A DNA stretch of 42,988 nt from a virus. Taxonomy: Duplodnaviria; Heunggongvirae; Uroviricota; Caudoviricetes. Below, in pieces: positions 23,291 to 42,190 of this stretch. The stretch lies in IMG/VR virus record IMGVR_UViG_3300045988_149348; one strand, given 5' to 3'. The position numbers were made by a program, and so were the translations under genes. Positions within the stretch are counted from its first letter, which is position 1, and the number at the start of each line of letters is the position of its first letter. The notes under the pieces are model-generated. The model was not told where the DNA came from and did not search any database. It saw only the letters and a list, made by a program, of their open reading frames with translations.

Positions 23291-23459
23291 ATATTTGATC
23301 TGTTTGTCTGGTGTGGCGCCGCGCACGAAAATCCCAGCCAATAAATTCAGGATTTTTGGGCGCGGCGGCATATCAGACAAACATGGTTGATGCGTGCGCC
23401 CATGAGAAAAGCGCATAGAATGTTGTAACTATATATTTATATAATTATAGAAATATATA

Positions 23460-23669
23460 TTACTTGGGGCAGTTGATTTCCCATGCCCTGTTATGAGCCA
23501 GAATATCTTTCTTTGTCTGGCGGTCCATAACATCGATATCGTGATCAGTCAGGTAGATGGGCTTTACCCAATCACAGGCGGTATCAACCACCACCGGGAC
23601 GCTTCCACGACTCCCGCAGCTCGCGATCAACATCGTCATCAGCCATATGGTTAACACTCTGCTGTACAT
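23460..23669 (-). CDS. o-spanin, Rz1-like lipoprotein
   Basis: 69 aa with lipobox LIASC; overlaps the 3' end of the Rz-like gene in another frame. Confidence 0.55.
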   Translation of the reverse strand: MYSRVLTIWLMTMLIASCGSRGSVPVVVDTACDWVKPIYLTDHDIDVMDRQTKKDILAHNRAWEINCPK

Positions 23670-23862
23670 TCCCCACCTCTTTTGTCACTTCTATACGCCG
23701 CTCCGCAGTGGCTTTTACGGCGGCTGCATTCTCATTAATGCGCTGCTTTTCAGCTTCATCTTCGGCCTTTTCTCGCCCCTTCATACGACCAAAACCAAAC
23801 GCACCGAATGCAACCAATATAACGGTGCCGATAAATGACAAAACGGCTTTCAAACCAGTCAT
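23584..23862 (-). CDS. i-spanin, Rz-like
   Basis: 92 aa; N-terminal transmembrane segment then charged coiled-coil; directly downstream of the endolysin. Confidence 0.55.
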   Translation of the reverse strand: MTGLKAVLSFIGTVILVAFGAFGFGRMKGREKAEDEAEKQRINENAAAVKATAERRIEVTKEVGNVQQSVNHMADDDVDRELRESWKRPGGG

Positions 23863-24401
23863 ACCACCACTCGCTCTTTCATCCAGCCGTAGACAAACGA
23901 CTCATTAGCCTCGCGCTTCTCCGCCAGCTCCAGATAGCGTTCGCCCTGCGTACAGTTCAGCGACGTCAGCATCACCCGTTCGCCGTCTTTTCCCCGATTC
24001 CCAAGATAAGCACGTAGCGCATTAATGGTACGTGGACCGATTCGTCCGTCTGCATCCAAATCGGGATACAGCTTCCCGCGCAGGTTGAACACATTCAGCC
24101 AGCGTTGAAGCATTTTTGACGCCACTGTTGGCCCCATGTTCACCCCCGTGTCACACAGCTCTGCGGCAATATCAGAGGATAATGCGGCCACCTGATCAAA
24201 GCGTGGTCCGTACCAGTAATCAGCCTCAAGGATTTCCAGTGCCTGTTCGCGGGTTAAATCGCGCATATCGCCACGGTATCCATGAGCACGGGCAGTGTTC
24301 TGAGTAATGCCCCACTTTGTTGGGCCTCCCTTGTCGTCAGGGTGATCCACATAGCCGCCCTCTTTTCCAAGAACGCTGTTAAAAATCTCATCTTTGGTCA
24401 T
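23859..24401 (-). CDS. endolysin, GH108-type muramidase with peptidoglycan-binding domain
   Basis: 180 aa; N-terminal EGGYVDHPDDKGGPTKWGIT motif as recalled for glycoside hydrolase family 108 lysins. Confidence 0.7.
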   Translation of the reverse strand: MTKDEIFNSVLGKEGGYVDHPDDKGGPTKWGITQNTARAHGYRGDMRDLTREQALEILEADYWYGPRFDQVAALSSDIAAELCDTGVNMGPTVASKMLQRWLNVFNLRGKLYPDLDADGRIGPRTINALRAYLGNRGKDGERVMLTSLNCTQGERYLELAEKREANESFVYGWMKERVVV

Positions 24402-24684
24402 GATTAAACCCTAATGCGTCAACTATCCGCGCCAGATTGCCCCTGAAATACAGAACAACGATGCAGATAATCAGATTTCCAATAACCACCAGCCAGTGGG
24501 ATTCTTGATAAAGACCGAACACATAACGGAAGGGAACATTGGCGTATACAATGACGTAGATATAAGCCAGAAAGGAAACAAATGGACGATGCCTGGAGTC
24601 TTTCCGTCGATAAAGCATCAGCGCCATTACTATTACTGTGCAAAGCACCGCATTAATCAGTGCTGACGGGTCACTGCTTACCAT
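24388..24684 (-). CDS. membrane protein, holin/antiholin-like
   Basis: Multi-pass hydrophobic ~98-aa ORF (from internal Met) between the holin-like gene and endolysin. Confidence 0.4.
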   Translation of the reverse strand: MVSSDPSALINAVLCTVIVMALMLYRRKDSRHRPFVSFLAYIYVIVYANVPFRYVFGLYQESHWLVVIGNLIICIVVLYFRGNLARIVDALGFNHDQR

Positions 24685-25066
24685 TTGAACCCCCTCCACG
24701 TAAGCGGGAAAGCATTCCAAAGATGCTACCGAGATCCTGGCTGTTTACGAACGTGAGGATTTTAATTGTCAATGCAGCCACAATAACCGCACCAAGTGCA
24801 TCAAGAGGACGATCGTTGTAGCTGGTCCATTTGGCAAGAAATGAGCCAACTAACGGCGCTCCAATCACTCCAACAATGAACGATGTAAAGAAATAGCCAA
24901 TCAGCTTGAGACGGCTAATATTCACCGCTGTAGCAACATAGAAAACAGCGCCAGCAAATGCCCCGAATACAACGCCGTAATCAATACCAGTTGCAATACC
25001 AAAAACGCTGGCACCCATCAGGCCACCAGCAGCAACGGCCGTACCGGAAATTGGTTCTGCTGACAT
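24671..25066 (-). CDS. holin-like membrane protein
   Basis: 131 aa, Gly/Ala-rich transmembrane segments, first gene of the lysis cassette; GAGGA Shine-Dalgarno 5 nt upstream. Confidence 0.5.
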   Translation of the reverse strand: MSAEPISGTAVAAGGLMGASVFGIATGIDYGVVFGAFAGAVFYVATAVNISRLKLIGYFFTSFIVGVIGAPLVGSFLAKWTSYNDRPLDALGAVIVAALTIKILTFVNSQDLGSIFGMLSRLRGGGSNGKQ

Positions 25067-25080
25067 TGAAATCCTCGTTA

Positions 25081-25110
25081 AAAAAAAAGCCCCGCCGAAA
25101 AAGGCAGGGC
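25081..25110 (-). terminator. rho-independent terminator immediately upstream of the holin gene
   Basis: Minus strand: GCCCTGCC-TTTTTC-GGCGGGGC hairpin followed by eight U residues; ends 15 nt before the holin start codon. Confidence 0.7.
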
Positions 25111-25452
25111 TTCATAAAGCAACAAATTACGCGGTAATCGCTTAACGCAGTTTTACTACGTTAAATGAAACACTACACCCAGTTACCACCTAAAACAAGG
25201 TTTCCCCATAAAAAAACCTTCATATCGTGGTTAATCGATCAATAAAAAAGCAATGTTCAACTTTTTACCAACCGAACATCCCGACCAGGACTTCCATAAT
25301 ATTCGCCGATATGCCACTGCTTAAGTTGAGTAATCTTCTCCAACTTAACTCCCATAGAGTCCAGTTTCTGCCATGTTTTCGGTTGTATGTGCTTCATTAC
25401 CCGCTCTGAATATCTGAATACTGCTCGTAAGCGCATGGCTTCTCACTACAGC

Positions 25453-25878
25453 TTATATATGTTCACGACTGGACTTCCAGAATATCCACGCCAGATCAAC
25501 ATTCTGGTCTTGGTAATTCATCCCTTCGTTGGCACGAAGCAATAATGTTTCATGGTTTTTATCACCCGCATGAAACCTGACAAGTGCTTCGAACTTTTCG
25601 CGCCCATCATCCGGCACTACCGCCGTTGGCGGCGCGGAGAATAGAGGTTTAGGTGATATTTCCGCACGTTTTGCGTATGCTTCAACTGTGTCAGGGTTAA
25701 ACAGGATTATGTTTTCACCGCATTCCCACGCTACCGGCTCTGCTTCCAGCGATGCCAGCGCGATACGAAACACATTGGCAAGCAGGCTGCTTGAAGATTG
25801 GTTATCGTGCGCCGGGTCGCTCAGGAAACCAGTGATGAATGATTTAATTTCCGCGTTTTCTCTGGTAATAGTGGTCAT
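25453..25878 (-). CDS. hypothetical protein
   Basis: 141-aa ORF, last gene of the accessory block. Confidence 0.4.
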   Translation of the reverse strand: MTTITRENAEIKSFITGFLSDPAHDNQSSSSLLANVFRIALASLEAEPVAWECGENIILFNPDTVEAYAKRAEISPKPLFSAPPTAVVPDDGREKFEALVRFHAGDKNHETLLLRANEGMNYQDQNVDLAWIFWKSSREHI

Positions 25879-26390
25879 GCCGCGTATCCTTCTTTCTTAT
25901 TAACAATTACACCGTCATATATTTCATTAAGGTGCCCTCTCAACTCCATGCGCCTTAATGCAGATAACATGTAATCGCATTCAACCTGCTTATTCCCAGT
26001 AAATGGCTTATCGTCAGGATTACCCCAACAGCAATTACCCTTGGGCCACCCATGTACTTTCCGTACTCTTCCGTTAACAACGTGAAGCAATCCCCAGCCA
26101 GGCGGTAAATCCTCAACTGAAATAATTCCCGGCTCACTAATAAAGAATCGCCAGTCGCCCATTCCAAGAGACGGATTTTTACGGAAACGCTTTTTTCTAT
26201 CTGCCAACAAGTCAGCACGAGAACACTTCGCCTCTATCAAGCATGATGCTGAATTTCTGAATCCCATAGCATCTGGCTGTTCTCCGGTACTGGTTACAGC
26301 TATAAAGCGGTCATGAAAGCAAACCTTGAACCCGTTGCGCTTAAGGAACTTGTACGCAATCTGACAGAGTTCGCGGTGTGTTAACGCCAT
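25875..26390 (-). CDS. putative PD-(D/E)xK-fold nuclease-like protein
   Basis: 171 aa from ATG 26390 (AAGGAG upstream); D...CLIEAKC arrangement resembles a D-ExK catalytic motif; assignment tentative. Confidence 0.4.
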   Translation of the reverse strand: MALTHRELCQIAYKFLKRNGFKVCFHDRFIAVTSTGEQPDAMGFRNSASCLIEAKCSRADLLADRKKRFRKNPSLGMGDWRFFISEPGIISVEDLPPGWGLLHVVNGRVRKVHGWPKGNCCWGNPDDKPFTGNKQVECDYMLSALRRMELRGHLNEIYDGVIVNKKEGYAA

Positions 26391-26575
26391 CTCACTCTCC
26401 TTTAGTGCGCAGATAACAGTGGTTTTTCCAGCGGTTTTGCGCCGCGCTACGCTTATCTTTGACTCCCTCTCTGGCAATTCCAGAATATAAGTACAACACC
26501 ACACGGCGATTGCTAACTCTCAACCACTGGCTGGGATAGCAACGTCTGTATACACGGGAAATAAGCATCTTTGCT

Positions 26576-26863
26576 TTACGGTTTTTCATCGTTTGCCCCC
26601 TGCTTTTCTGCCCTTAACACCATGCGAGAACCATCATCCAGCTCCCAATTGATTTCACCGCCTTCTGCCATGACAAGATGCCAAACGAGTTGTGCGGCCT
26701 CGTTGGTTACATCACGACCGCGATCATTGCCTACACGGCGTTTTGTTCCGTCACCTAAATCGCGCATTTTGGCCAACACGATGGTTTTTGATAGCGGTGA
26801 AAAACCAAGCTGTAGCCGTGCGGAATTACTCACTGGTTGCCCCCTGAATACGTTTAAACTCAA
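26576..26863 (-). CDS. hypothetical small protein
   Basis: ORF track only; start uncertain. Confidence 0.3.
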   Translation of the reverse strand: MSLNVFRGQPVSNSARLQLGFSPLSKTIVLAKMRDLGDGTKRRVGNDRGRDVTNEAAQLVWHLVMAEGGEINWELDDGSRMVLRAEKQGANDEKP

Positions 26864-27518
26864 TTACCCATACCCACGGGTTAGATAGCCAGTTCTCTTG
26901 CCCGTAAATACCGCGCCAGATATCACCAAAGCCAACGCGATAAACAGCTTCCGGCGGTGTAATCTTGTACGTCGCCGGAGATGCGCCTTCCGCTTTAGCA
27001 TCTGCCTCGCTCATGTCATGCAGCCGTTCCACACGCACGTCGGTAATTTCCAGCAAAATACGCGAAGCCCAGCGCGGCATGTGAATTGATGGACGCCACC
27101 CGCCATCAAACTTTTCATTCACAGTGTGAGGTTTCCAGTCGACATCATCGGGTATCGACCATAAGCCGTAATCACCCTGCTTTTGCTCACAACTGGCCCG
27201 ATAAATCCTTGCTGCGTTCTTCTCATCGCCACGACAAAGGCTGTCGTTCCAGTCCACACTGCAACCATCCTCATTGCCTAATATCGCCCACGCTTCACGG
27301 ACCCATATGCGATCACCAACGTTACCGAACGGGCATAAACCATGTTCCGGTGCATCCATAACGTGGGTATAGACACCATTGCGTTTCTTTGTCGGTTTAC
27401 GGATAACCAGGCAGTTATCGGCCCTGACATTTTTTACAGGTCGGCGAGTCTGCGTCTTCCTGCCTTCGAGGATGGCCCTGACCATCGCATCATTAAAAAT
27501 CATGCCGCGCTCTTTCAT
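26826..27518 (-). CDS. ASCH-domain-like protein
   Basis: N-terminal MIFNDAMVRAILEGRKTQTRR matches the GxKTxExR-type ASCH signature as recalled; start set at an internal Met (27518) to avoid overlap with the upstream gene. Confidence 0.45.
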   Translation of the reverse strand: MKERGMIFNDAMVRAILEGRKTQTRRPVKNVRADNCLVIRKPTKKRNGVYTHVMDAPEHGLCPFGNVGDRIWVREAWAILGNEDGCSVDWNDSLCRGDEKNAARIYRASCEQKQGDYGLWSIPDDVDWKPHTVNEKFDGGWRPSIHMPRWASRILLEITDVRVERLHDMSEADAKAEGASPATYKITPPEAVYRVGFGDIWRGIYGQENWLSNPWVWVIEFKRIQGATSE

Positions 27519-27523
27519 CTTGC

Positions 27524-27889
27524 TCACTTCAACTCCTCCCGACGACGTTCCTGAAGCTCTAGCATTGCGGCTCGGAAATCCTGCCACCATTCCTCATCGG
27601 CTACTGGGGTGTTCCGCTCCAGCACCTTGTCCGCATCGGCGATCAGGTTTGCCAGACTCTTGTCTGAAATCTTCGTTACCGGAGTCGTTGGTTGCTCAAC
27701 CTGCCCGATAGGTTTTATCGTGCTCAAAAGGAGGCGACGGCGGGAAAGAGGTGCCCCACAACGACGGCCATCTTCCTTGCGATATGTTTCTTTCGGACCA
27801 ACACACCAGGTTGTCGGCGTCTCGCGCAACTTCACTTTTTTCTCACCATCATTGGTAATGATTATTCCGGTATGGGTTTTGATGCTCAT
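27524..27889 (-). CDS. hypothetical protein
   Basis: 121-aa ORF, coupled with neighbours. Confidence 0.4.
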   Translation of the reverse strand: MSIKTHTGIIITNDGEKKVKLRETPTTWCVGPKETYRKEDGRRCGAPLSRRRLLLSTIKPIGQVEQPTTPVTKISDKSLANLIADADKVLERNTPVADEEWWQDFRAAMLELQERRREELK

Positions 27890-28167
27890 GCCACAGCCCC
27901 TCTCAACGGCTTAACTTTGGCTAATAAGGTGTTAAACAACATGGAGTTAGGATTCATGCCAAATGGCAATTCCGGTTTAGCGGAGTAGTACAGGCAACCA
28001 TTTATTTTCCTGGTTGTTATCTGTCCTTCGGCAACCATGCTTCTCAGTCTGCAACGCATAGAGTTCTGCGACACACCAATGTGCTCCGCGATTACGTCCA
28101 CTTTTGAACATGGGTGATCGGTCAGGAAATTAATCACATCTTGGGGGTTAATAATTTTGCGTTTCAT
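27886..28167 (-). CDS. small winged-helix DNA-binding protein (putative regulator)
   Basis: 93 aa from ATG 28167; helix-turn-helix-like segment VDVIAEHIGVSQNSMRCRLRSMV; AT-rich motif copy directly upstream. Confidence 0.45.
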   Translation of the reverse strand: MKRKIINPQDVINFLTDHPCSKVDVIAEHIGVSQNSMRCRLRSMVAEGQITTRKINGCLYYSAKPELPFGMNPNSMLFNTLLAKVKPLRGAVA

Positions 28168-28244
28168 TGTCGAGGCGTCCTTATACATTTATATAAATAT
28201 ATAATTCTATATACGGCGGGAGACATCCCGCCGTAGGCTTACTG

Positions 28245-29312
28245 TCAGGCTTTCAATAGCGATTCTTTCAGATATCGGGCATCAGCCAGGGCGTTTGGAG
28301 TAATCTTGCGAACCCATGCATTACGGGTTGGACTCCACTTAAAGGCGCGTGATTTAAGCAGCGAACGAATGTTTGCCTCTGGTTTGCCAGGGAAATAAAA
28401 CAGGATGCGGTTATCCTCTGGATCTATCTCCATAGAAAAGCCGTCGTATTCTTCGCGCTGTGCTCCTGTTACAGACTTGACCGATTCAAGCTCCTTAATA
28501 CGGCTCTGTAGTCGTTTGATTTCGGCGTTATTGTTGCTCAGTGCGTATGAAGGGAATCCGATGCGCCCACAGAAATCTCCGGCCAGTAACTCTTTGGCTT
28601 CGCTTTCTGTAAACCTGAGATCGATTAATGCAGAAAGCTGCTGTAATTGGTCTTTTTTGTATTTGCGAATGGCCTTATTTGCGGCCTTCATTTTGACGTG
28701 TGACTTCATGCAGCCTTGCAGCTTACGAAGCAACTTAAATAGCGCATCAGGATCATCAGACGAAATTCCATTACGACCAACACCTGCGGCTTTGCTCTCG
28801 TAGTGTGATGCTTTACTTTCGCATTCAACAAAGGCTTTTCTGAATAACGCATCAGCTTTAGACAAACGGCGGCGATGGCCTTTCGCGCTATAATGGTCAA
28901 CTAAAATCGGCTGGCCTAACGGGATCACATCCAACAGGTCATGCGCTCGCTTATGCGCTACCGCACCTTCTTTTCTGGCTTTTTCTGCACGAGCAACATA
29001 TCGGGCAAGACGCGCGTTCTGGCGTTCCTGATAGGTGTTTACGTAATCATCTCCGCGCTGCTGCTGTTCAAGCCATGCTTTGCGCAGATCTTCTGTTACG
29101 TCCACCAGCTCCGCAGGGATACAACCAGTTTGGGCTTCATAAGAGTAACCATCCTCATAGATACGCCCATCGTCTTCAACAAAGAAAAAGGTTTCGTGCT
29201 CATCGCTTTTGACCATACGACCATTAACATGGCGTAATAGGTAGCCAGTATCAGTGCTTAACAGGCTGTTAGGGTTGTTGATCCAGTCAGAAATAATTAC
29301 TTGTTTATTCAT
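28245..29312 (-). CDS. hypothetical protein (possibly DUF3560-like)
   Basis: 355-aa ORF, first gene after the Q-like gene; GGAG ribosome-binding site; preceded by copy A of the shared ~100-bp leader. Family assignment from memory only. Confidence 0.5.
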   Translation of the reverse strand: MNKQVIISDWINNPNSLLSTDTGYLLRHVNGRMVKSDEHETFFFVEDDGRIYEDGYSYEAQTGCIPAELVDVTEDLRKAWLEQQQRGDDYVNTYQERQNARLARYVARAEKARKEGAVAHKRAHDLLDVIPLGQPILVDHYSAKGHRRRLSKADALFRKAFVECESKASHYESKAAGVGRNGISSDDPDALFKLLRKLQGCMKSHVKMKAANKAIRKYKKDQLQQLSALIDLRFTESEAKELLAGDFCGRIGFPSYALSNNNAEIKRLQSRIKELESVKSVTGAQREEYDGFSMEIDPEDNRILFYFPGKPEANIRSLLKSRAFKWSPTRNAWVRKITPNALADARYLKESLLKA

Positions 29313-29318
29313 CAGATT

Positions 29319-29420
29319 TCTCCGGTTTAACCAGGGCGGGTATCGCTCGGTTTCGGGTATAACCTTAGGAAATTTTTTCCCACCTGTAAAGCACTTTTTA
29401 TATAAATCTATAATTATATA
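29319..29420 (-). promoter_or_regulatory. duplicated ~100-bp promoter/leader module, copy A (candidate Q-dependent late promoter region)
   Basis: Near-identical to 38909..39021 (3 differences seen by eye); sits between the Q-like stop codon and the next start codon; contains TTTACA-17-TAAGGT and an AT-rich 20-mer. Confidence 0.55.
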
Positions 29421-29481
29421 TTTATAGATTTTCGATGTTCCCGATGTCTACACACCATCAAAACAGCTCAAAATGACACTT

Positions 29482-29859
29482 TCACTCTCTTCTCTTTTTC
29501 AAATAGTCGACAACATACGCCCTGGCTTTTGCCAGCTTCCGGCGATACTGTCTGAGACTAAGAGAAAGGGCGTGGGCTTTATCAATATGCGGTGCATTTA
29601 TGTCGAGGCCCCGAATCTCCCACGCCCCGTATTCAATTCGGACAACCAGCGCCGCAGTCTCATCAACTACCGTGAGGGCCGTCACCGCTCCCTCGATACT
29701 GGTTTCCAGTGAGTCATTTGGTGCGCCGCCCCCTCCGGTAAACTGGCAACGCGTAACCATCATCATTTCTAACATCGACGCGAAACCGCTACGGGCGTTG
29801 CAGCCATTGCGCACCCACAGCGCCCATAGCTCAAACAAGCTATCCAGATCGCGTCTCAC
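29482..29859 (-). CDS. antitermination protein Q-like
   Basis: 125 aa; LFELWALWVRNG and EYGAW motifs resemble the 82/21-type Phage_antitermQ family as recalled; promoter-like repeat directly downstream. Confidence 0.55.
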   Translation of the reverse strand: MRRDLDSLFELWALWVRNGCNARSGFASMLEMMMVTRCQFTGGGGAPNDSLETSIEGAVTALTVVDETAALVVRIEYGAWEIRGLDINAPHIDKAHALSLSLRQYRRKLAKARAYVVDYLKKRRE

Positions 29860-29862
29860 TGT

Positions 29863-30195
29863 TCAGATCTCCCGTATCGTGACGGGATAAAGCGCCTCTA
29901 CCTGCTTTTTCTTCATGATGTAGACGTCTGTTCGCACACCTTTAGTGTCGACACAATCAATCGTCCCATCGTCATAAAACACCATGAAATCAAGTTTATA
30001 AACGACACCACCTGGCAGATTAAAAGGCACCTGCATAAGAAACGTCACAACGCGGCCAGCTTTTCTCAGTAGCTTCAGTTCGCAGTAGTAATCAGCCTCT
30101 TTTTTGCTATCAAAAGCGATATCATCGACAACCGTTTTTTTATTGCCGTATTTGCTTTTCCTGGTCGCTGGTTTGCGAAAGCCGGTATATCTCAT
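29863..30195 (-). CDS. DUF1064-like protein (nin-region type)
   Basis: 110 aa; YGNKKT...FDSKKEADYY...YKLDFMVFY pattern as recalled for DUF1064. Confidence 0.5.
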   Translation of the reverse strand: MRYTGFRKPATRKSKYGNKKTVVDDIAFDSKKEADYYCELKLLRKAGRVVTFLMQVPFNLPGGVVYKLDFMVFYDDGTIDCVDTKGVRTDVYIMKKKQVEALYPVTIREI

Positions 30196-30596
30196 TTGGT
30201 ATCCCCTGGTACTTCACCAAGACTAAGATCAAACCCAATTTCGTCTTTAACTGACTGCGGCAACAGCTCCCACGTCTGCGCACACAAAAATTCATCGGTG
30301 CCATAACGCTCAACAAAGCGAGCACAATTACTCAGGGGAGGGTGACGAACGGCAATATGCGGAGGCACGCGCCCACCACCAGGCACAACACCGCGATGAT
30401 GTGGTGCGCACAACCCAAAGCTATGGAAGTGGCAATTCTCATCAACGCTGCCGTAATCAGGATCGTGATGTAGTTCCGTCCACAGCTCTGGATTCTCAAT
30501 TTCACGGCCATCAATAATGCAAGCTATGCAACCCACGTGAGTGAGCACCGCTTGTATATAAAGTTTCTCTTTCTTCGTTGGTGTACGTCCGTTCAT
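30192..30596 (-). CDS. putative zinc-binding HNH-type nuclease (Ref/NinG-like recombination protein)
   Basis: 134 aa; Cys/His cluster GCIACIIDG...LHHD...CHFHSFGLCAPHH. Confidence 0.4.
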   Translation of the reverse strand: MNGRTPTKKEKLYIQAVLTHVGCIACIIDGREIENPELWTELHHDPDYGSVDENCHFHSFGLCAPHHRGVVPGGGRVPPHIAVRHPPLSNCARFVERYGTDEFLCAQTWELLPQSVKDEIGFDLSLGEVPGDTK

Positions 30597-30829
30597 CAGC
30601 GCCCCTTACCATTGATAAAGAGGTTGAACTCGTTGATTAACTGGACATACATGCTTCTGGCCGCGTAGTTCTTTGCCAGCTCTTTACGGGATGAGATCCC
30701 GCAAAACTCACGCAGAATCACAGAGGCCTCAGAACTGTTTGAAACGTTCTTCCCTGTTTTACTGGTCAGAAAGCGCCAGAATTGGGGATTCTGGCAATGC
30801 ATCGCAGCACCGCGAACATAACTACTCAT
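30596..30829 (-). CDS. hypothetical protein (nin-region)
   Basis: 77-aa ORF, coupled start/stop with neighbours. Confidence 0.4.
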   Translation of the reverse strand: MSSYVRGAAMHCQNPQFWRFLTSKTGKNVSNSSEASVILREFCGISSRKELAKNYAARSMYVQLINEFNLFINGKGR

Positions 30830-31832: not shown

Positions 31833-31850
31833 TTAACGAACTCCAGTTAA

Positions 31851-31865
31851 ACCACGATATGTGGT
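31851..31865. promoter_or_regulatory. operator, ACCAC-N5-GTGGT family (ACCACGATATGTGGT), Cro-side
   Basis: Perfect 15-bp inverted repeat in the cro leader; imperfect neighbour ACCACATATCGTGAG at 31872..31886 falls in the spacer of a TTGAAA-17-TTTAAT promoter on the minus strand. Confidence 0.6.
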
Positions 31866-31953
31866 ATTAAAACCACATATCGTGAGTTTTTCAATGGGCG
31901 AAACAAAAAATAACCTTCTATTTGTGGTCCACCTCTCGTCTTACCATGTGAAA

Positions 31954-31968
31954 ACCACTAAATGTGGT
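31954..31968. promoter_or_regulatory. operator, ACCAC-N5-GTGGT family (ACCACTAAATGTGGT), repressor-side
   Basis: Perfect inverted repeat just upstream of a TATAAA -10-like hexamer (31973..31978) and the CI-like gene start. Confidence 0.6.
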
Positions 31969-32005
31969 AATGTATAAATAACCCACCATTCACGATTGAT
32001 GAGAC

Positions 32006-32662
32006 ATGAAAAGCAACGACGAGAACATCAAGAAAGAAATAGGTCTGCGCATTCAGACTCTACGGAAACAATCCGGCATGACTGCCGGAGATCTCCAGCA
32101 AGTCACTGGAATAGGCTTAAGCACCTTGCAGAACTATGAGGCCGGATTAAGACAACCATCTATACCTGCCATCAAGAAAATCGCGCACGCCCTGAAAGCA
32201 TCAGCGCCTTATATCGCGTGCTTAACAGATAACCCGTTCCCACCCCAGAATACTAACGCTCCTGTTATTCCTGGGCTTGTAGCTATAAAAAATGACATAG
32301 CATCGCACGCCGGAGAAAAGCCAGTGCTGGCGATAGAACAGGAGATTCTACGAAGCAAGAACATCAACCCATCGTCTCTGTCAGTTCTCCAGAGCAACGA
32401 TGAGTTAATGTCACCAACAATATCCCCTGGCTCCCAAGTCCTGATTAATACAGACGATACAGAGATTCATGAGGGGATCTATGCCCTTGAAGACAGAAAT
32501 GGCCTGGTTGTTTTGAGGCACTGTAGAGTCATACCGGGTGACAATGCTGTTATGCTGTCAACCGAAAGGGATGCTGAAATGAACACTAAGCATCTGAATA
32601 ACGAGGAATTTAAGCGTTATAAAGTTCTTGGCCGCGTAGTTAGTGTTGTCAACTGGTTATGA
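32006..32662 (+). CDS. CI-like repressor (HTH_XRE N-domain + LexA/S24-like C-domain)
   Basis: 218 aa; N-terminal helix-turn-helix (LQQVTGIGLSTLQNYEAG); C-terminal ELMSPTISPGSQVLIN aligns by eye with the S24 GDSMxPxIxxGDxVLVD motif. Confidence 0.7.
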   Translation: MKSNDENIKKEIGLRIQTLRKQSGMTAGDLQQVTGIGLSTLQNYEAGLRQPSIPAIKKIAHALKASAPYIACLTDNPFPPQNTNAPVIPGLVAIKNDIASHAGEKPVLAIEQEILRSKNINPSSLSVLQSNDELMSPTISPGSQVLINTDDTEIHEGIYALEDRNGLVVLRHCRVIPGDNAVMLSTERDAEMNTKHLNNEEFKRYKVLGRVVSVVNWL

Positions 32663-32704
32663 TACACAGCACGGCGAAAGCCGTGCATTTCTACGCTCAA
32701 AAAA

Positions 32705-32719
32705 ACCACATTTTGTGGT
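32705..32719. promoter_or_regulatory. operator, ACCAC-N5-GTGGT family (ACCACATTTTGTGGT)
   Basis: Perfect inverted repeat between the CI-like gene and 32755..33129, followed by TTGACA. Confidence 0.55.
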
Positions 32720-32754
32720 TTTGACAACATGTAAAAGTATAAAAGAGGCTACGC

Positions 32755-33129
32755 ATGGAATTACATACAGCCAATAAAAATGAAACTCTGATCACTGCTG
32801 GAATCGAAATCCAAGCGTTGAACATAGCGATTGAGTGTATGTTATGCCAAATCATTGATAATGAGAAAGATATCGACTGGATAGAATCTATCCTTCATCT
32901 GGCATCAGAACAAAAAGTCTGCCTCAAAACGGCCTTGCAATACGATGTGCCAGCGGTATCGAAGCTGTGCCAGCCATTGATGGCATATAACAGGGCTATT
33001 ATTTCTGTATGCCTCATGATTCTTGATGAAAACACCCCTCTTAGCGACCGCTCAGAAGCTGCTCTAACCCTCTCACGTAAACAGCGACATCTAGCAAATC
33101 AACTGATATCAACGATAGCTGACCTCTGA
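32755..33129 (+). CDS. hypothetical protein downstream of the repressor gene
   Basis: 124-aa ORF with its own operator copy upstream. Confidence 0.45.
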   Translation: MELHTANKNETLITAGIEIQALNIAIECMLCQIIDNEKDIDWIESILHLASEQKVCLKTALQYDVPAVSKLCQPLMAYNRAIISVCLMILDENTPLSDRSEAALTLSRKQRHLANQLISTIADL

Positions 33130-33264
33130 CTGCAAGCGGGCTAACGCCCGCTTATATGATTATAGATTTATATAATTATATAAAACGCTTTCCATCCGCC
33201 AAAAAGTTGGTTATGCTTACCTCGTTCTATAAATATAGATTTATAGAATTATATAACCAAACAC

Positions 33265-33933
33265 ATGGAGTCTCGACAAATGACTATCTCTGTAGGTATT
33301 TTCAACGGAAAAGGCGGCGTAACCAAATCAACAATTGCCCGTGCTTTAGCAGTTGCTTATGCAAAGGCTGGCTGGAATGTATGCCTGATCGATATGGATG
33401 TGCTTAACGGAACGGTAACGCGTTGGGTACAACGCAGAATGGCCAACAATATCGAACCAGCAATCGCGGCGCAGCCGTGCGGCACACCATCACAAGTCCA
33501 GAAAATCATCGAATCAGAAGTATACGACCTGGTTATCGTTGATGGCGGTGCCTACGCATCTGAATCAGTACCGAAGCTATCTGAATTTCTGGATATGGTT
33601 ATTTTGCCAACCCGATTCTCTACCGATGACCTGGAAACCACCGTTAACACTGCTCACGGCATCGTTAAAAAGGGTGTGCCAATCAAGAAAATTTGCATGG
33701 TGTTTTCCGGCGCGGCTGAAAATGAAGCTGACTATATTGAAGCCCAAGAGTACCTGGCTAATACGCCATACTTTGTTGTCGATAAGTACATTCCCCACAA
33801 GCCAGCTCTGAGCAAAGCTCAGGATAAGGGCTTAAGCCTCATTGAATGCTCATACGTTGCGCCACGCAAAAAGGCAGACGACGTTATTCAGGGGATTATC
33901 AACCAGCTTGAGGCTCTGACTACTGCCGCGTAA
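33265..33933 (+). CDS. ParA-family partition ATPase (small, type Ib-like)
   Basis: 222 aa; deviant Walker A GKGGVTKST near the N-terminus; followed by a small ribbon-helix-helix-like gene; AT-rich repeats upstream. Confidence 0.7.
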   Translation: MESRQMTISVGIFNGKGGVTKSTIARALAVAYAKAGWNVCLIDMDVLNGTVTRWVQRRMANNIEPAIAAQPCGTPSQVQKIIESEVYDLVIVDGGAYASESVPKLSEFLDMVILPTRFSTDDLETTVNTAHGIVKKGVPIKKICMVFSGAAENEADYIEAQEYLANTPYFVVDKYIPHKPALSKAQDKGLSLIECSYVAPRKKADDVIQGIINQLEALTTAA

Positions 33934-33976
33934 TATATAATTATAGTTTTATAGATTTATATAAGAGGGGATACAC

Positions 33977-34225
33977 ATGGCCGCACCATCAAAACCACCA
34001 AAGAAGAACAGCAAAGGCGTACCGCCATCGATCGAACAACCGCAGGTTTTCGACCCGACTGAAACGCCAACCAGAACCAAATCAGGTGGGGCACAAATGG
34101 CGTTTAACGTCGACCCTGAATTTAAACGCGAGTACAAAACGTTCGCCAGCTCAATGGATATGTCATTGAAAGAAGTGCTGACAAAATCTTTTGAGTTACT
34201 CAAGGCTCAATACAACCAGAAGTAA
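33977..34225 (+). CDS. ParG-like ribbon-helix-helix partition/centromere-binding protein
   Basis: 82 aa; basic Pro-rich N-terminal tail and C-terminal RHH-like segment (MAFNVDPEFKREYKTFA...); immediately downstream of the ParA-like gene. Confidence 0.5.
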   Translation: MAAPSKPPKKNSKGVPPSIEQPQVFDPTETPTRTKSGGAQMAFNVDPEFKREYKTFASSMDMSLKEVLTKSFELLKAQYNQK

Positions 34226-34254
34226 GAGAAGGTGACGGCCTCCAGCGCCAACTG

Positions 34255-34437
34255 TTGGCCGTCGCGACACAACAAGGGGAATTTGTTATGTCCGAGCAAC
34301 AATATACACGGTTACTGAAAACTCGTCTAACCGACCTCAAACGGCTGCAAGCTGGTCGCTTATTTGCCCTGCTATCCACCAGGCCAGAATGGGTACGTGA
34401 AGCAGTTCTGAAAGGCTTAATGCGCTCCAGCGTTTAA
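34255..34437 (+). CDS. hypothetical small protein
   Basis: 60-aa ORF; last ORF before the hairpin at 34454..34469. Confidence 0.3.
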   Translation: MAVATQQGEFVMSEQQYTRLLKTRLTDLKRLQAGRLFALLSTRPEWVREAVLKGLMRSSV

Positions 34438-34446
34438 ATTCAACCA

Positions 34447-34469
34447 TAAAAAAGGCCCCCGAAGGGGCC
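34447..34469 (-). terminator. rho-independent terminator (minus-strand orientation)
   Basis: GGCCCC-CGAA-GGGGCC hairpin with an A-run on the plus side, giving a U-run on the minus strand after the small peptide ORF. Confidence 0.55.
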
Positions 34470-34475
34470 TAATCG

Positions 34476-34598
34476 CTACTTGCTGCTAATGTTTATCGTC
34501 ACATTCAGAGCGTTATCAGTAATCTTCCAACCCTCCCCATGTGGCGTAAACAAAGCTCCAGTAACAACGATAAAAATACACATGTAGTATTTTTTCAT
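34476..34598 (-). CDS. small hydrophobic peptide (40 aa), candidate membrane peptide
   Basis: MKKYYMCIFIVVTGALF...; AAGGG 8 nt upstream of ATG 34598; own terminator downstream. Low confidence. Confidence 0.3.
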   Translation of the reverse strand: MKKYYMCIFIVVTGALFTPHGEGWKITDNALNVTINISSK

Positions 34599-34976
34599 TG
34601 TGTGGCCCTTACAGGCCGTTTCACGGCATCCCCACCGACGAAAATGACGCGAGAGCAAGCACGCTGTTTGTGCCTGCGTGGTACGGCAAGTGGATAATCC
34701 TTTCCTGAAAGTCGGTGCCCGGTTGCGAATCGGCGAAAAGGCCCCGCGTAATGTTACACCGCAGCCCCTTCATAATGAAGGGATAAAAATGTATTGTTTT
34801 TCATTAGGTTAAATACACACCACAAAAATCACTCGCTTTTGTGCTCTAATAAACCAAATTTATTTGGACAATTTTATTCAGTTGGGTAAGAATATGGTTG
34901 CTGTTTGTGCTTGCGTGGTTGTATTTATACAACAACGTAATGCTGAAAGGACCGCGAATCCGATCAGCACGAAAGA

Positions 34977-35002
34977 ACCGTCCTCAAAAGGACGGTTTTT
35001 TT
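34977..35002 (+). terminator. rho-independent terminator (plus strand)
   Basis: ACCGTCC-TCAAAA-GGACGGT followed by TTTTTT; overlaps the 3' end of the minus-strand gene 34984..35556. Confidence 0.6.
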
Positions 35003-35556
35003 GTTTCTCCCCCTTCCTTCCCAAATGATTCAAATGTTAATGAGAGTGAATCATTTGATATGTTCGATTTAGCGCCGTTATCGACCCAATTTCTGTATGC
35101 TTCATCACAACAGTACCTTACAGCAGTTGGAGTAACAGGGATGCCGCCCCCAAATGAGAATCCCATTGAGCTAATGCTAACTCTTTCGAATGGCCTATTT
35201 CTCAATGCTTCAAACCCCTTGCTATTAAAGTAACGCAGCATCAGAGGTAAAAGGTTATCCTCGTCCTGACTGATTGTTCCAGGGAAAAAGTAGTAACCAT
35301 AACGGTTAAATTCGGGAATAAGAATTTCTACCAATGACATGAAATTCACTGGAGTAATATTAAGGGCTGTGAAAGCACCAAAAAGGGCGTCAACTGTTAA
35401 TACAGACTGCCCGTTCTCTATCTTTGTCCATGCGTTTGGTGTTTTTCCAGCAGCTTGAGCCAGCACTCCTTGATGCACACCTCTTTCTAGCCTAAGTTCT
35501 TTTATGATCATTAGGTGAATTGTTGAAAAACATGAGTTTTTTGACTGTTCAATCAT
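34984..35556 (-). CDS. HTH_XRE-family DNA-binding protein with uncharacterised C-terminal domain
   Basis: 190 aa; helix-turn-helix VLAQAAGKTPNAWTKIENGQSVLTVD; GGGGA ribosome-binding site 6 nt upstream of ATG 35556. Confidence 0.55.
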   Translation of the reverse strand: MIEQSKNSCFSTIHLMIIKELRLERGVHQGVLAQAAGKTPNAWTKIENGQSVLTVDALFGAFTALNITPVNFMSLVEILIPEFNRYGYYFFPGTISQDEDNLLPLMLRYFNSKGFEALRNRPFERVSISSMGFSFGGGIPVTPTAVRYCCDEAYRNWVDNGAKSNISNDSLSLTFESFGKEGGETKKPSF

Positions 35557-35692
35557 TTTTTATCCCCATACTGAATTTTTTCTTGTTCCCGACTTTAACA
35601 AAACCCCACAACTCAGGACTGATTGATTCCTTACAGGAACTATACATTCCCATTTTTAGCATATCAAGAAAATTAAAAGCCCCGCATTCAAA

Positions 35693-35707
35693 CCCACACT
35701 ATGTGGT
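35693..35707. promoter_or_regulatory. operator, ACCAC-N5-GTGGT family (CCCACACTATGTGGT, one mismatch)
   Basis: Immediately upstream of an extended -10-like TGTTAAAAT (35711..35719) that precedes the candidate small-RNA region. Confidence 0.5.
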
Positions 35708-35737
35708 TTAGTCTGTTAAAATCCCTCTGTATTGACA

Positions 35738-35839
35738 TAAATGCGCCATTGGTGGACACTTTCCGAGCCGTAGCAAAATCTACGGTCGGGATTGGAACCC
35801 CGTAGACACAATGGCGCATACCGCGTTAGCGGTTTTTTT
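35738..35839 (+). ncRNA. candidate c4-like antisense regulatory RNA with intrinsic terminator
   Basis: Structured ~100-nt region: GCGCCATTG...CAATGGCGC long-range stem, CCGTAG/CTACGG inner stem, then ACCGC-GTTA-GCGGT plus UUUUUUU terminator (35820..35839). 35789..35817 is complementary in two blocks (CATTGTGTC, GTTCCAA) to 35917..35941 in the downstream leader. Confidence 0.5.
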
Positions 35840-36005
35840 ATGCGTAAAGCACTGCTACACCCAAATTATGGTGGGGCGTGCGGGGGAGTCGTAAGACTCG
35901 CCGGTTCGTCATTGTGTCCGGTAGTTCCAACCCTGCACGTCTCACCACCCAATGATTGGAACCTGACGGTGGTGAGTATCCTTAACCTTTAAGGGAATCA
36001 TCACA

Positions 36006-36197
36006 ATGACAAACCTACCCCATGACTATTACGTCAACCTCGTAAAGATCCTTCTCAAGAAAGCCTCATACGCCGATAAAGTCCGCCTGGCTGAAATCAT
36101 CGAGCGCGAAGCTATGCGCATCGCCAGCAACGATAACGCTGTTTCTGACGCAAAAATCTCCCTCGTAACCAAAGTAGTTATGGGAGGTGCAAAATGA
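36006..36197 (+). CDS. icd-like small ORF, translationally coupled to the antirepressor gene
   Basis: 63-aa ORF whose TGA stop overlaps the ATG of the next gene (ATGA); AAGGG ribosome-binding site lies in a CCTTAA/TTAAGG hairpin. Confidence 0.5.
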   Translation: MTNLPHDYYVNLVKILLKKASYADKVRLAEIIEREAMRIASNDNAVSDAKISLVTKVVMGGAK

Positions 36198-37375
36198 AAA
36201 CGCTTCCGATCGTTAACACCCTACAGCCTATCCTGCATAACCAGATCCCCGTTATCACTACTGAACTACTGGCAAAGCTATACGGCACAGACGTTGATAA
36301 CATCAAAAAAAATTACTCACGTAACGCAACCCGCTTTATTGAAGGAAAGCATTTTTTCAAAGTGGCTGGCGATGAGTTAAAAACTTTGCGAGTGACTTTA
36401 AGTCACTCACAAAATTTGCGACTAGTTTTAAACGAGTCACAAAATGAAGTGCAAATTTCCCCCAAGACTCGCTCTCTCATCCTCTGGACAGAACGCGGGG
36501 CTGCACGTCATGCCAAAATGCTTGAAACTAACCAAGCGTGGGATGTATTCGAACGGCTGGAAGACTGCTATTTCAGCCAGAACGCGCAAACGGCCGCGAC
36601 CGTAACCGTCTCGCCAAACAATGCTCGTGAGGTTGTCGATACGCTCAACGCCAAACCGATGTTTTACATTAAAGTGTGCAACAACGAGCCACTCACAACC
36701 TCAGCCGATGTTGCCCAGGCATTCAGCACCACAAACAATTCCATCGTTATGGCCATCGATGCGCTACGCATTCCTCGCACGGCTGCGGCGCGTCACTTCT
36801 TTAAAGAGCAACGACCGTTGGAAGGAAGCGACCGCGAAATAACAATCTATCGCATGACAAAAGACGGATTTACCTTGCTCATGGAGAGCATCGACGGTCC
36901 AGGCGTGAAAGATATCAAGCTGGCCTACATTGAAGCCTTTAACGCTATCAGCAGCGTGTTAAAAACACAGTACGAGCGTGATCTGGCTAAACGACTGTAC
37001 CAGGAAAAAACGATTATCCGCGCGGCAACAGAGCATAATCGGCTATTAACGGAACCGAACTACAGGAAGGAACTAATCAAGGAGTTTGACAAGGCAACAG
37101 GGAAAACCAAAGCGGCGCTAAATCTGCCAGCAATGACTCAGGAAAATGTGATATCAGCCTTACTTCTTGATCTGCTCAGAAACGCCAGAGCACTTATCAG
37201 CTTTGACGAAAACCTGAATCCTCAGCTCAAGCTACTACCACCGACAGGCAAAGTAGTCGACCAGGCTGATCACAACAGCATACTCAGCGTACTGGATGCA
37301 AACCTGCCAGCCAGGACACTACAGGATCTGATAAAAACATGTGCTGATAAGCTGGCACAGAAAAGCAGACCATAA
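36194..37375 (+). CDS. antirepressor-like protein (ORF6N/KilA-N-like N-domain + Rha-like domain)
   Basis: 393 aa; N-terminal ITTELLAKLYGTDVDNIKKNYSRNATRF (ORF6N-like) and central PLTTSADVAQAFSTTNNSIVMAIDAL (Rha-like), as recalled; GGGAGG ribosome-binding site. Confidence 0.6.
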   Translation: MKTLPIVNTLQPILHNQIPVITTELLAKLYGTDVDNIKKNYSRNATRFIEGKHFFKVAGDELKTLRVTLSHSQNLRLVLNESQNEVQISPKTRSLILWTERGAARHAKMLETNQAWDVFERLEDCYFSQNAQTAATVTVSPNNAREVVDTLNAKPMFYIKVCNNEPLTTSADVAQAFSTTNNSIVMAIDALRIPRTAAARHFFKEQRPLEGSDREITIYRMTKDGFTLLMESIDGPGVKDIKLAYIEAFNAISSVLKTQYERDLAKRLYQEKTIIRAATEHNRLLTEPNYRKELIKEFDKATGKTKAALNLPAMTQENVISALLLDLLRNARALISFDENLNPQLKLLPPTGKVVDQADHNSILSVLDANLPARTLQDLIKTCADKLAQKSRP

Positions 37376-37377
37376 CT

Positions 37378-37399
37378 ACAAGGGGCTACGGCCCCTTAC
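37378..37399 (+). terminator. rho-independent terminator after the antirepressor gene
   Basis: AAGGGGC-TAC-GGCCCCTT hairpin followed by a T-rich tract. Confidence 0.55.
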
Positions 37400-38112
37400 T
37401 CTTTTCTCTCTTATCAACGCCAGAGACTTTCTGAAAATCCTTTCGAATAGCGTCAGCATCACGCGCCAAGCCCATACTGGAATGCGTCGCCATATGACGA
37501 AAATGATCAACTGCCGGAAACAAAGAAATAATGGACCCAATAGCTTGCAGCAAACTCGCTTTTCTACGCATCATAATTCCACCATAACCGATAACCACCC
37601 TTCAGACACAACCCCCCCTCCCCCCATACAGGGTGCCCTTTACCGGAGTTCCGGCCCCTTCTCAAAAGCATCAAAAAAAGCTCGAGATCGAGTACCGGAA
37701 CTCATGCCACCAGATAGCTCCACATCGTTTCCAATGCTTCGCCGCCGTGTGCGCCCTGTGGCCCACAATCATGCCATTGGTCGTCTGATATACCTTCTTC
37801 TGCTCATAGAGCACAGGCGAGTTGTCGCACTCCTGCCTTTCTCAGACTCGACTTAGTTTAGATCGCTGTTCCTGGCTTGCGTCAGCACACTTTCCCCTTG
37901 TACGCATACCCGCGCGCCACTTCGCCCAAAAACACCGAACCCAACGAAGTGGCAAAGACAACGACGCGAGCGTGAGTCTGAAATGGGCACCAGTAAAAAA
38001 GGGGTTGCAGGCGCAAAAAGATTTGATTATCTTTAGACGCAAGAAAGCCGCCCCAATCAAGAGGTGTCTTTTTAAATCCAGCCTACCAAGCAAGATTTAA
38101 ATTTCAGACTGA

Positions 38113-38137
38113 AAACCGCCCGGCAAGGCGGTTTTTG
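38113..38137. terminator. bidirectional rho-independent terminator
   Basis: ACCGCC-CGGCAA-GGCGGT hairpin flanked by AAAA on one side and TTTTT on the other; downstream of the minus-strand operon 38901..38185. Confidence 0.6.
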
Positions 38138-38184
38138 TCTTTCTGGCGCTTACATTACACCACCATAAAACGATCCGTAAAGGA

Positions 38185-38457
38185 TCATTTGATCCCTTGT
38201 TCCAATTCTGACGACACTTTAACCTTTTCCCATACAAGGGTTTGCAGCCTTAACAGAATCGCATCTTTATCAAGGTGTGAAAGATCCTTAACCATATCGT
38301 CAAACGACAGAACGCGAATGGCCATCTCAATGACCCTCGGCGGCTCCCCCTTCTCATATCGCTTATATGTAGCCAACGATATCCCAAATTCTTCGGCGGC
38401 TCGCTCCTGCGTCCAGTTCATCCCACGACGCCATAATTTCAATTCATAACCCGTCAT
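38185..38457 (-). CDS. Cro/C1-type helix-turn-helix DNA-binding protein
   Basis: 90 aa from ATG 38457 (GAGGAGG upstream); WTQERAAEEFGISLATYKRYE helix-turn-helix. Confidence 0.55.
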   Translation of the reverse strand: MTGYELKLWRRGMNWTQERAAEEFGISLATYKRYEKGEPPRVIEMAIRVLSFDDMVKDLSHLDKDAILLRLQTLVWEKVKVSSELEQGIK

Positions 38458-38520
38458 AGCATCCTCCTCGCACAATATTAACACTCGCAAAGTGTCAAAA
38501 TGACACTTTGCGCATTGTGT

Positions 38521-38901
38521 TTACTTAACGAGGAATAAAAATGGTTTATTGTTCGGCGGTGTAATCGGGGCTGGCTCGCTTTTGCTCATGCGGTCAGTGT
38601 ACCAGGCCAGCTCCTTGTCAAAGTAAGCCTGATTAAAATAGGCCATGAATGTGGTTTCAAATCCATAACGACCGCTAATACGCAGCATCTGATTGCCGTT
38701 CTCTGTTTCCAGATATACCAGGGCACGCTCCTGATTCTCCTTCAGCCAGGTTAAAGCCTCATCGCACGAGGACACACGATACTCATCATCGTAGCCGTCA
38801 TCGATGCGGCTTGAAGAAGAACGGCAAATCACGCCAACAGAACCAGCCAGGATAGTTTGAATTTTAAGGAAAGCGTTTTTGCGGATTTTAATCATGCTCA
38901 T
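38521..38901 (-). CDS. hypothetical protein driven by copy B of the duplicated leader
   Basis: 126-aa ORF; 5' region identical to that of 28245..29312 up to the ribosome-binding site. Confidence 0.45.
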   Translation of the reverse strand: MSMIKIRKNAFLKIQTILAGSVGVICRSSSSRIDDGYDDEYRVSSCDEALTWLKENQERALVYLETENGNQMLRISGRYGFETTFMAYFNQAYFDKELAWYTDRMSKSEPAPITPPNNKPFLFLVK

Positions 38902-38908
38902 CGGGTTA

Positions 38909-39021
38909 TCTCCGGTTTAACCAGGGCGGGTATCGCTCGGTTTCGGGTATAACCATAGGAAATTTTTTCCCACCTGTAAAGAACCTTTTTATATAAATCT
39001 ATAATTATATAACTCTATGAG
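38909..39021 (-). promoter_or_regulatory. duplicated ~100-bp promoter/leader module, copy B
   Basis: Near-identical to 29319..29420, including the TATAAATCTATAATTATATA 20-mer. Confidence 0.55.
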
Positions 39022-42148: not shown

Positions 42149-42190
42149 TTCCATATCTGGTCACTTTCCAACCAGACACCCACAATCATA

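Follow-up and report, generated by a model that had tools for sequence, protein, structure and literature searches.

Four-iteron 8-bp arrays at seven transcription-unit starts of an enterobacterial phage-plasmid are candidate sites for a ParG-like partition protein

Seven intergenic places in a 42,988-nucleotide (nt) stretch of tailed-phage DNA (IMG/VR record IMGVR_UViG_3300045988_149348; this whole stretch is referred to as the window) carry copies of the same AT-rich sequence, and the question is which protein, if any, reads them. A first-pass annotation of the DNA had described them as a 20-mer family, favouring protein-binding sites over plain -10 boxes, and had noticed that three copies lie at a gene pair for ParA and a ParG-like protein. 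Our analysis points to a common answer for all seven: they are probably type Ib centromere/operator iterons, bound by the 82-amino-acid (aa) ParG-like protein, predicted to be of the ribbon-helix-helix (RHH) type, that is encoded next to parA, and extended from the partition locus into a small regulon.

Between 23 and 40 kb the window is 97–99% identical in megablast to ~60 circular, non-mobilizable plasmids of ~48 kb each, which were found in Escherichia coli, E. albertii, E. fergusonii and Klebsiella and include one from E. coli ATCC 25922; megablast also matches the window to the Yersinia phages vB_YpM_39, 41 and 44. Annotated relatives encode myovirus-type tail genes, a terminase, a portal and lysis genes alongside RepA, ParA, a CI-like repressor and a HigBA-like toxin-antitoxin pair. 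With phage and plasmid genes on one molecule, the element is, to judge from these relatives, a phage-plasmid of a ~48-kb E. coli/Salmonella family. Two complete relatives were used for comparison, L002 (the E. coli ATCC 25922 plasmid, 48.5 kb) and L026 (Salmonella, 47.2 kb). A literature search found neither the array motif nor anything on the related Yersinia phage vB_YpM_41.

Measured against composition-matched backgrounds, the motif family is clearly non-random. The sequence TATAAATCTATAATTATATA, with up to three mismatches allowed, has 11 overlapping matches in the window where dinucleotide shuffles give 0.00, and the pattern TATA-N4-TATA-N4-TATA, with at most one mismatch, has 23 (0.09 expected), all of them within the seven places. 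Markov chains of order 1–3 were deliberately made harsh by training them only on 3.55 kb of local intergenic DNA with the arrays included; they expect 0.02–0.17 clusters, and none of 1000 simulations rose above two. We therefore give practically no credence to the idea that the matches are chance low-complexity AT-rich sequence. Such hits do exist, since an exact 20-mer scan of viral contigs returned 17 stretches of the same family and one chance match in an unrelated viral contig of 21–34% GC (L013). Seven clusters are nevertheless far above what even an array-trained background yields, and their positions are kept in a Salmonella relative that is only ~80% identical.

The repeated unit is shorter than first described: the 20-mer is a real repeat, but it is a slice of an array of 8-bp iterons. 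Tandem Repeats Finder reported a period of 8 with the consensus TTATATAA at six of the seven sites, and each site, read in register, consists of four contiguous iterons (4 × 8 bp). The consensus over all 28 units is TTATAKAW, with A3, T4 and A5 invariant in 28/28. In gene direction, array S1 (23429–23460, minus strand) reads ATATATAT TTCTATAA TTATATAA ATATATAG, S2 (28181–28212, minus) ATATAGAA TTATATAT TTATATAA ATGTATAA, and S3 (29398–29429, minus) ATCTATAA ATATATAA TTATAGAT TTATATAA. On the plus strand follow S4 (33152–33183; TTATATGA TTATAGAT TTATATAA TTATATAA), S5 (33225–33256; TTCTATAA ATATAGAT TTATAGAA TTATATAA) and S6 (33933–33964; ATATATAA TTATAGTT TTATAGAT TTATATAA), and the last, S7 (38989–39020), is again on the minus strand (TCATAGAG TTATATAA TTATAGAT TTATATAA). 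The places given in the first-pass annotation were thus right, although 23428..23441 spans only part of S1 and 39002..39021, a real array, is shifted by ~10 nt from the exact 20-mer at 38992–39011. Internal dyad symmetry had been noted as well, and it is explained by the commonest unit, TTATATAA, being its own reverse complement. The 20-mer does occur in both orientations on the plus strand; relative to the downstream gene, however, six of the seven arrays point in the same direction.

All arrays lie at the 5' ends of transcription units, and three of them, S2, S4 and S7, immediately follow a hairpin with which the gene before them ends. The 43-kb window holds no array beyond the seven. L002 and L026 carry the same seven and an eighth, S8, with none in their structural-gene or repA regions. 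Iterons of RepA or a replication origin were considered as an identity for the arrays and rejected, as no arrays lie near repA.

Three of the arrays belong to the partition locus. S4 and S5 are 41 nt apart and flank a sigma-70-like pair read from the sequence as the putative parA promoter (33189–33217, plus strand; -35 TTTCCA, 17-nt spacer, -10 TATGCT), which scores 8/12 and so falls under the promoter-scan cut-off. The Salmonella relative and a further relative, L022 (-10 TATCAT), have both hexamers at the same positions despite a diverged spacer sequence. S4 directly follows its hairpin and ends 5 nt before the -35 box; counted from the putative parA transcript start, it would reach from about -72 to about -37 and S5 from about +1 to about +32, and S5 lies 5' of the parA ribosome-binding site. 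S6 fills the gap between parA (33280–33933, plus) and the gene for the ParG-like protein (33977–34225, plus; 82 aa), our candidate for the protein that binds the arrays, and it lies right against the ribosome-binding site of that second gene. The link of three copies to this gene pair therefore stands, but they do not strictly bracket it as first stated: two are 5' of parA, one is between the genes, and there is no array downstream of parG.

The gene pair has several features of a type Ib partition system. ParA, at 217 aa, is a small Walker-type partition ATPase without the N-terminal DNA-binding domain; it matches CbiA, ParA and MipZ in Pfam, the PHROG “ParA-like partition protein” at 2e-39 and, over the whole 203-position profile, NCBIfam ParA_partition at 4.3e-22, which is below the curated cut-off. 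Its sole match among solved structures is ArsA (5.6e-6), ParF falling short of the 1e-5 reporting cut-off. The 82-aa protein fits a type Ib centromere-binding protein in its size and in its position directly 3' of parA, and the iterated repeats around the putative par promoter agree with such a system as far as the sequence can tell.

The PHROGs collection enters the 82-aa protein as unknown, and by sequence it is not in the Pfam ParG family PF09274 (E ≤ 0.01); phmmer against PDB sequences gave no matches. In the AlphaFold monomer (mean predicted local distance difference test score, pLDDT, 65) a disordered tail of residues 1–40, rich in Lys and Pro, is followed by a short extended segment (MAFNVD) and two helices (47–59 and 62–79). 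An exhaustive HMMER search found ~100 remote homolog clusters of 75–90 aa with the same pattern, a conserved KG-PP tail followed by -NF-V--EF--EFK-FA---DMSM-ELL. Among 52 remote homologs, Pfam assigned RHH_10 to 26, Antitox_RHH to 12 and ParG to three, the ParG matches being weak (best 2.7e-4), and hhalign aligned the family with the RHH region of ParG at 80% probability. On the predicted fold, the Pfam matches of its homologs and this alignment, we treat it as an RHH protein with ParG-like architecture that is not a member of Pfam ParG.

Annotation of the relatives places three proteins with ParB/Srx N-terminal domains close to the terminase genes, where the late region starts (22469–23092, 21096–22475 and 19212–19802, minus strand); none of them is related to the ParA/RHH pair, and they are not to be confused with its centromere-binding protein. 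Just 3' of the par operon terminator, a full-length match to the small RNA ryfA occupies 34448–34746 on the minus strand (136.6 bits, E = 2e-35).

To see how far the arrays travel with the gene pair, we compared 12 ParA+RHH systems, namely that of the window and 11 others, of which one is a close relative and ten share 27–43% identity in the RHH protein. In all ten distant loci that were fetched the homolog is encoded directly 3' of a ParA of 211–221 aa. These loci come from a conjugative-plasmid-like contig, P2-like phage-plasmids, lambdoid phage-plasmids or elements and a Halomonas plasmid. When lags were compared upstream of parA, lag 8 was the strongest or tied-strongest period in 12/12 systems, and most share one layout: array, promoter, (often inverted) array, ribosome-binding site, parA, array, ribosome-binding site, parG. 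The units themselves are specific to the lineage. L023 and L028 use TTAAAGAA or ATAAAGAA, L021 uses TTAACGAA and TTCTTTAT, and L027 TTAACGCA or TTGACGAA; a single mismatch separates the window unit TTATAGAA from TTAAAGAA. The same 8-bp period in homologous modules with differing units argues for protein-binding sites, as the first-pass annotation had favoured. All these loci share just two genes, those for ParA and the RHH protein, and since small ParAs have no domain for sequence-specific DNA binding, the RHH protein is left as the one common candidate for binding DNA.

Close relatives tell the same story at higher resolution. L022, whose RHH protein is 79% identical, and the Salmonella plasmid, whose parAG is ~80% identical in nucleotides, both have TATA-type arrays at the same positions while the flanks, including the S4–S5 spacer, have diverged; by this sequence comparison the arrays are under selection. 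The RHH proteins and the units also seem to vary together. Lineages with the predicted beta-strand -NF[KRLVT]V- have units of the TTAA[A/C]GAA type, and the CTATA core goes with the window family (-AFNV-), L032 (-TFNM-) and L034 (-QFHV-); this correspondence between beta-strand residues and iteron core is suggestive, not proof.

A separate observation concerns L030, an AT-rich contig that codes for a distant ParA+RHH pair and for a Rep3 initiator. At 3641–4280, ~1 kb 5' of its parA, iteron-like matches recur about every 48 bp over ~640 bp; they may form a large centromere of their own or else be iterons for Rep.

The same comparison bears on whether another regulator encoded by the element binds the arrays, the candidates being the 93-aa winged-helix protein, the CI-like repressor and a 190-aa helix-turn-helix (HTH) protein. 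Several HTH regulators are indeed encoded nearby, and P1-type phage-plasmids scatter their repressor operators over the genome. These candidates are, however, absent from the distant loci in which 8-bp arrays accompany parA and parG, and short tandem repeats suit an RHH protein better than HTH dimers, which usually bind palindromes. The CI-like repressor has, moreover, a plausible palindromic operator family of its own: AACCAC-N5-GTGGTT has eight matches in the window at up to two mismatches (1.4 expected), six of them in regulatory spots (31850–31866, 31871–31887, 31953–31969, 32704–32720, 35692–35708 and 42190–42206). These places are the divergent region of the early-left operon and the CI-like gene, the region 5' of a 124-aa open reading frame (ORF), the region 5' of c4/ant and the start of repA. 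They are probably operators of the CI-like repressor and, if so, the site at the repA start would put repA under immunity control. A separate palindrome that fits the CI-like repressor also makes the small HTH proteins less likely binders, and we regard this explanation as hardly probable. Identification of the arrays with CI-type operators was rejected for the same better fit of the palindrome.

A further module is found at 35754–35952 and 36194–37375 (both plus): Rfam matches isrK (67.7 bits), C4 antisense RNA (77.8 bits) and, just under threshold, the c4 a1/b1 target, all three 5' of an ORF6N/Rha antirepressor gene. A P1/P7-type immI (c4-ant) module thus coexists with the lambda-like CI repressor in the element.

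Host nucleoid proteins (H-NS, IHF, Fis) would be another class of binder, with the arrays as high-affinity sites that silence or bend promoters. The arrays are very AT-rich, contain many TpA steps and lie at promoters, and H-NS prefers AT-rich, TpA-rich DNA. Such proteins would not readily account for three positions invariant in all 28 units, for a fixed period and copy number, or for unit sequences that vary with the RHH lineage in other hosts. Within the plasmid collection, furthermore, arrays are confined to the family that carries parAG, and no array matched the IHF consensus WATCAANNNNTTR when inspected by eye only, with no formal scan. As the identity of the sites this is very improbable in our judgement; as co-binders of the arrays, host nucleoid proteins are possible.

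Why, then, are some arrays far from parAG? Four in the window, and five in the E. coli and Salmonella relatives, lie 4.5–10.5 kb away, and the units 3' of the dispersed arrays are unrelated to one another: a tRNA-Met with the late region, a winged-helix gene, a DUF3560 gene and a 126-aa gene. S1 lies upstream of a long hairpin (34-bp arms, 23301–23383), which separates it from the tRNA-Met gene (anticodon CAT; 23215–23290, minus) just 3' of it, and then the late region; the 216-nt leader-plus-tRNA region folds with z = -4.1. S1 does not precede a 103-aa ORF (23105–23416), which the tRNA and hairpin overlap and which is therefore spurious. S2 follows directly on the hairpin after the DUF3560 gene; at its other end it touches the ribosome-binding site of the 93-aa winged-helix gene, just as S6 touches that of parG.

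Three of the five distant arrays (S3, S7 and S8) belong to a portable cassette of ~125 nt, made up of four iterons, 7–8 nt, TTTACA, 17 nt, TAAGGT or TATGGT, a ~55-nt leader and a ribosome-binding site. Its copies (29313–29429, 38902–39020 and L002 32528–32650) are near-identical up to the ATG of, respectively, the DUF3560 gene, the 126-aa ORF and an L002 ORF after an MT-A70 methylase. Before the DUF3560 gene, promoter and leader span 29313–29397 (minus strand; -35 TTTACA 29390–29385, 17-nt spacer, -10 TAAGGT 29367–29362, then the ~55-nt leader and ribosome-binding site), with S3 ending 7 nt before the -35. Before the 126-aa gene they span 38902–38988 (minus; -35 TTTACA 38980–38975, 17-nt spacer, -10 TATGGT 38957–38952); S7, which follows the terminator of the HigBA-like toxin-antitoxin module, ends 8 nt before that -35. 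The two segments (29313–29397 and 38902–38988) are 96% identical over 81 nt. A structured RNA in the cassette leader was rejected (z = -1.0).

Most of the 62 plasmids of the family have three copies of the cassette. Of the records in the plasmid collection, 62 contain the cassette and 61 contain parAG, and the one extra record that was examined proved to be a 32-kb deleted derivative of the same family. We sought as a control elements with the same genes and a different partition system and found none, as only this family has the DUF3560 region. The stretch TTATATAA-AAAGTGC-TTTACA of the cassette is similar to the upstream half of the parA promoter, TTATATAA-AACGC-TTTCCA, a likeness that suggests a duplicated S4/parA promoter module as the origin of the cassette.

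One cassette was met outside the family. In L037 (NZ_CP140467.1, a 27.7-kb conjugative cfr plasmid) IS26 has cut an S7-type cassette at 3990–4050, and what is left of it, three iterons and the -35 box, adjoins the same HigBA-like module. At 5449–6465 the plasmid encodes a ParA of its own (247 aa) and a protein of 77 aa, the latter by eye with the same tail/RHH-like pattern (beta-strand QLNLYVD). Taken together, these sequences point to exchange between phage-plasmid and conjugative plasmids.

Promoters adjoining several arrays raise the further possibility that the arrays are AT-rich promoter parts, -10-like hexamers or UP elements for host RNA polymerase with no dedicated binder. TATAAT-like hexamers are present in every array, all arrays are at 5' gene ends, and S3, S4 and S7 occupy the UP-element position just 5' of a -35 box. 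A strict 8-bp period and a constant four units are, however, not traits of UP elements, and S5, S6 and S2 are downstream of, or away from, any -35/-10 pair. The promoter scan placed no gene-directed sigma-70 promoter within the arrays; promoter-like pairs adjoin them instead (38980–38952; TTTCCA/TATGCT), which bears out the earlier view that they are not simply -10 elements. Homologous arrays with the same period and mostly the same placement are, finally, built from units such as TTAACGCA without a -10-like hexamer, and we consider this explanation quite improbable.

Several observations weigh against assigning all arrays to the ParG-like protein as binding sites. The 82-aa protein has no Pfam (E ≤ 0.01) or NCBIfam match; the best match of its family profile in the PDB, ParG of TP228 (1P94), covers the RHH region and is weak at E = 0.4, and Foldseek of the AlphaFold monomer, with its long disordered tail, returned only meaningless ribosomal matches from the PDB. 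No convincing sigma-70 promoter could be placed for S1, S2 or S6, and from about -37 to -72 the arrays S3, S4 and S7 could activate instead of repressing, or could simply be AT-rich UP elements. Two systems depart from the common layout, L033 having no array between parA and parG and L032 a GC-richer palindromic arrangement. The match between beta-strand and iteron comes from few lineages, and a one-to-one code was not sustained: L021, L023, L028 and L035 mix AAAG and ACGA units, and with several systems mixing unit types there is no simple code. In most distant systems, lastly, arrays are confined to the par locus, and those found elsewhere in the window might simply have been carried along when promoters were duplicated. 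Limited dispersal is not unique to the family of the window, as L023 has one extra array ~400 bp past parG (10644–10675) and L036 one or two arrays of its own type at other gene starts (12875–12898 and 6146–6169).

With these points counted, binding by the ParG-like RHH protein continues to be the likely explanation. By analogy with ParG, one RHH dimer would occupy each 8-bp iteron, four of them cooperatively per array. S4, S5 and S6 would form the centromere that nucleates the partition complex and would double as the operator through which the protein represses its own parAG operon, as in other type Ib systems. Binding, the direction of regulation and centromere activity we infer from sequence and homology. 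Because four or five other transcription units in this phage-plasmid family also have such an array at their start, the partition protein would regulate the genes there too, setting expression of the DUF3560 gene, the 126-aa gene, the winged-helix operon and the tRNA/late region. The extra arrays may in addition add centromere capacity, as in N15.

A more ambitious version, which we hold to be unlikely, makes the ParG-like protein and the dispersed arrays a switch that senses copy number and couples maintenance as a plasmid with lytic growth. As long as the element is a plasmid prophage, the protein, which would control its own synthesis, would fill all 7–8 arrays and thereby keep expression low for the DUF3560 (primase-like) gene, the winged-helix/lysis operon and the tRNA/late region. 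Once induction had set off runaway replication, the growing number of arrays would titrate the protein away, so that these units would be derepressed with genome copy number, and the portable cassette would let newly acquired accessory genes join the circuit.

The closest known system is ParF/ParG of TP228, where ParG recognizes tetramer boxes regularly spaced by 4-bp AT-rich spacers, in direct and inverted orientation and with one dimer per box, that act as both operator and centromere (PMC3130281). Both systems pair a small Walker ATPase with a following protein of ~76–82 aa that has a flexible N-terminal tail and a C-terminal RHH domain (predicted here), and both have short sites every 8 bp. 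They differ in the box, which is ACTC in TP228 and ATAK (within TTATAKAW) in the window, and in the arrangement, a single contiguous block of 20 in TP228 and seven four-unit arrays here, with one array between both genes and four far from the par locus. The window protein also falls short of the Pfam ParG model.

Wider regulation by an RHH centromere-binding protein has a precedent in omega of pSM19035, whose repeat arrays overlap several promoters and for which at least four contiguous repeats are needed for ParA activation (PMC9499535). Omega of pSM19035/inc18 is a global regulator with arrays at several operons including non-partition genes, a likeness that the window shares by position, and its functional minimum of four contiguous repeats equals the exact size of each array here. 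Omega, however, reads 7-bp heptads (WATCACW) in arrays of 7–10, compared with the 8-bp TTATAKAW, its host is a Firmicute plasmid rather than a phage-plasmid, and delta and omega are transcribed separately, unlike parAG in the window. No sequence similarity of the window protein to omega was detected.

As a phage-plasmid with candidate partition-protein sites scattered over its genome, the element also resembles N15, a linear phage-plasmid in which SopAB acts with four inverted-repeat (IR) centromere sites (PMC7205306). N15, however, uses a type Ia HTH ParB (SopB) on single 16-bp palindromes; in the window the sites, though dispersed, are tandem iterons, the proposed binder is a small RHH-like protein, and all arrays are at 5' gene ends, several of them within a promoter cassette. 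The IR sites of N15 are reportedly dispersed and affect late-gene expression, as Ravin & Lane (1999), Grigoriev & Lobocka (2001) and Ravin et al. (2008) are said to have found. The C1 repressor of P1 has many dispersed operators controlling separate plasmid-prophage operons. A C1-like role would fit AACCAC-N5-GTGGTT and the CI-like repressor here, not the TATA-type arrays.

The general kind of system is thus already known, both for type Ib systems with an RHH protein, whose iterons double as operators, and for centromere-binding proteins that regulate genes beyond partition. What appears new is threefold: the assignment made for a widespread phage-plasmid family and ~100 homolog clusters, the family-wide 8-bp architecture that mostly includes an array between the genes, and the spread of four-unit arrays to other transcription-unit starts via a reusable cassette.

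The assignment proposes a function for an 82-aa hypothetical protein of dozens of E. coli/Salmonella phage-plasmids, including that of ATCC 25922, and for its ~100 remote homolog clusters. A broad ParA+RHH family could be defined by 8-bp iterons around the parA promoter and, mostly, between both genes, and cloned arrays should serve as incompatibility or curing determinants for these plasmids. If true, the reading would extend the precedents of omega and N15 to a type Ib system in an enterobacterial phage-plasmid and would offer a testable link between plasmid segregation and phage gene control.

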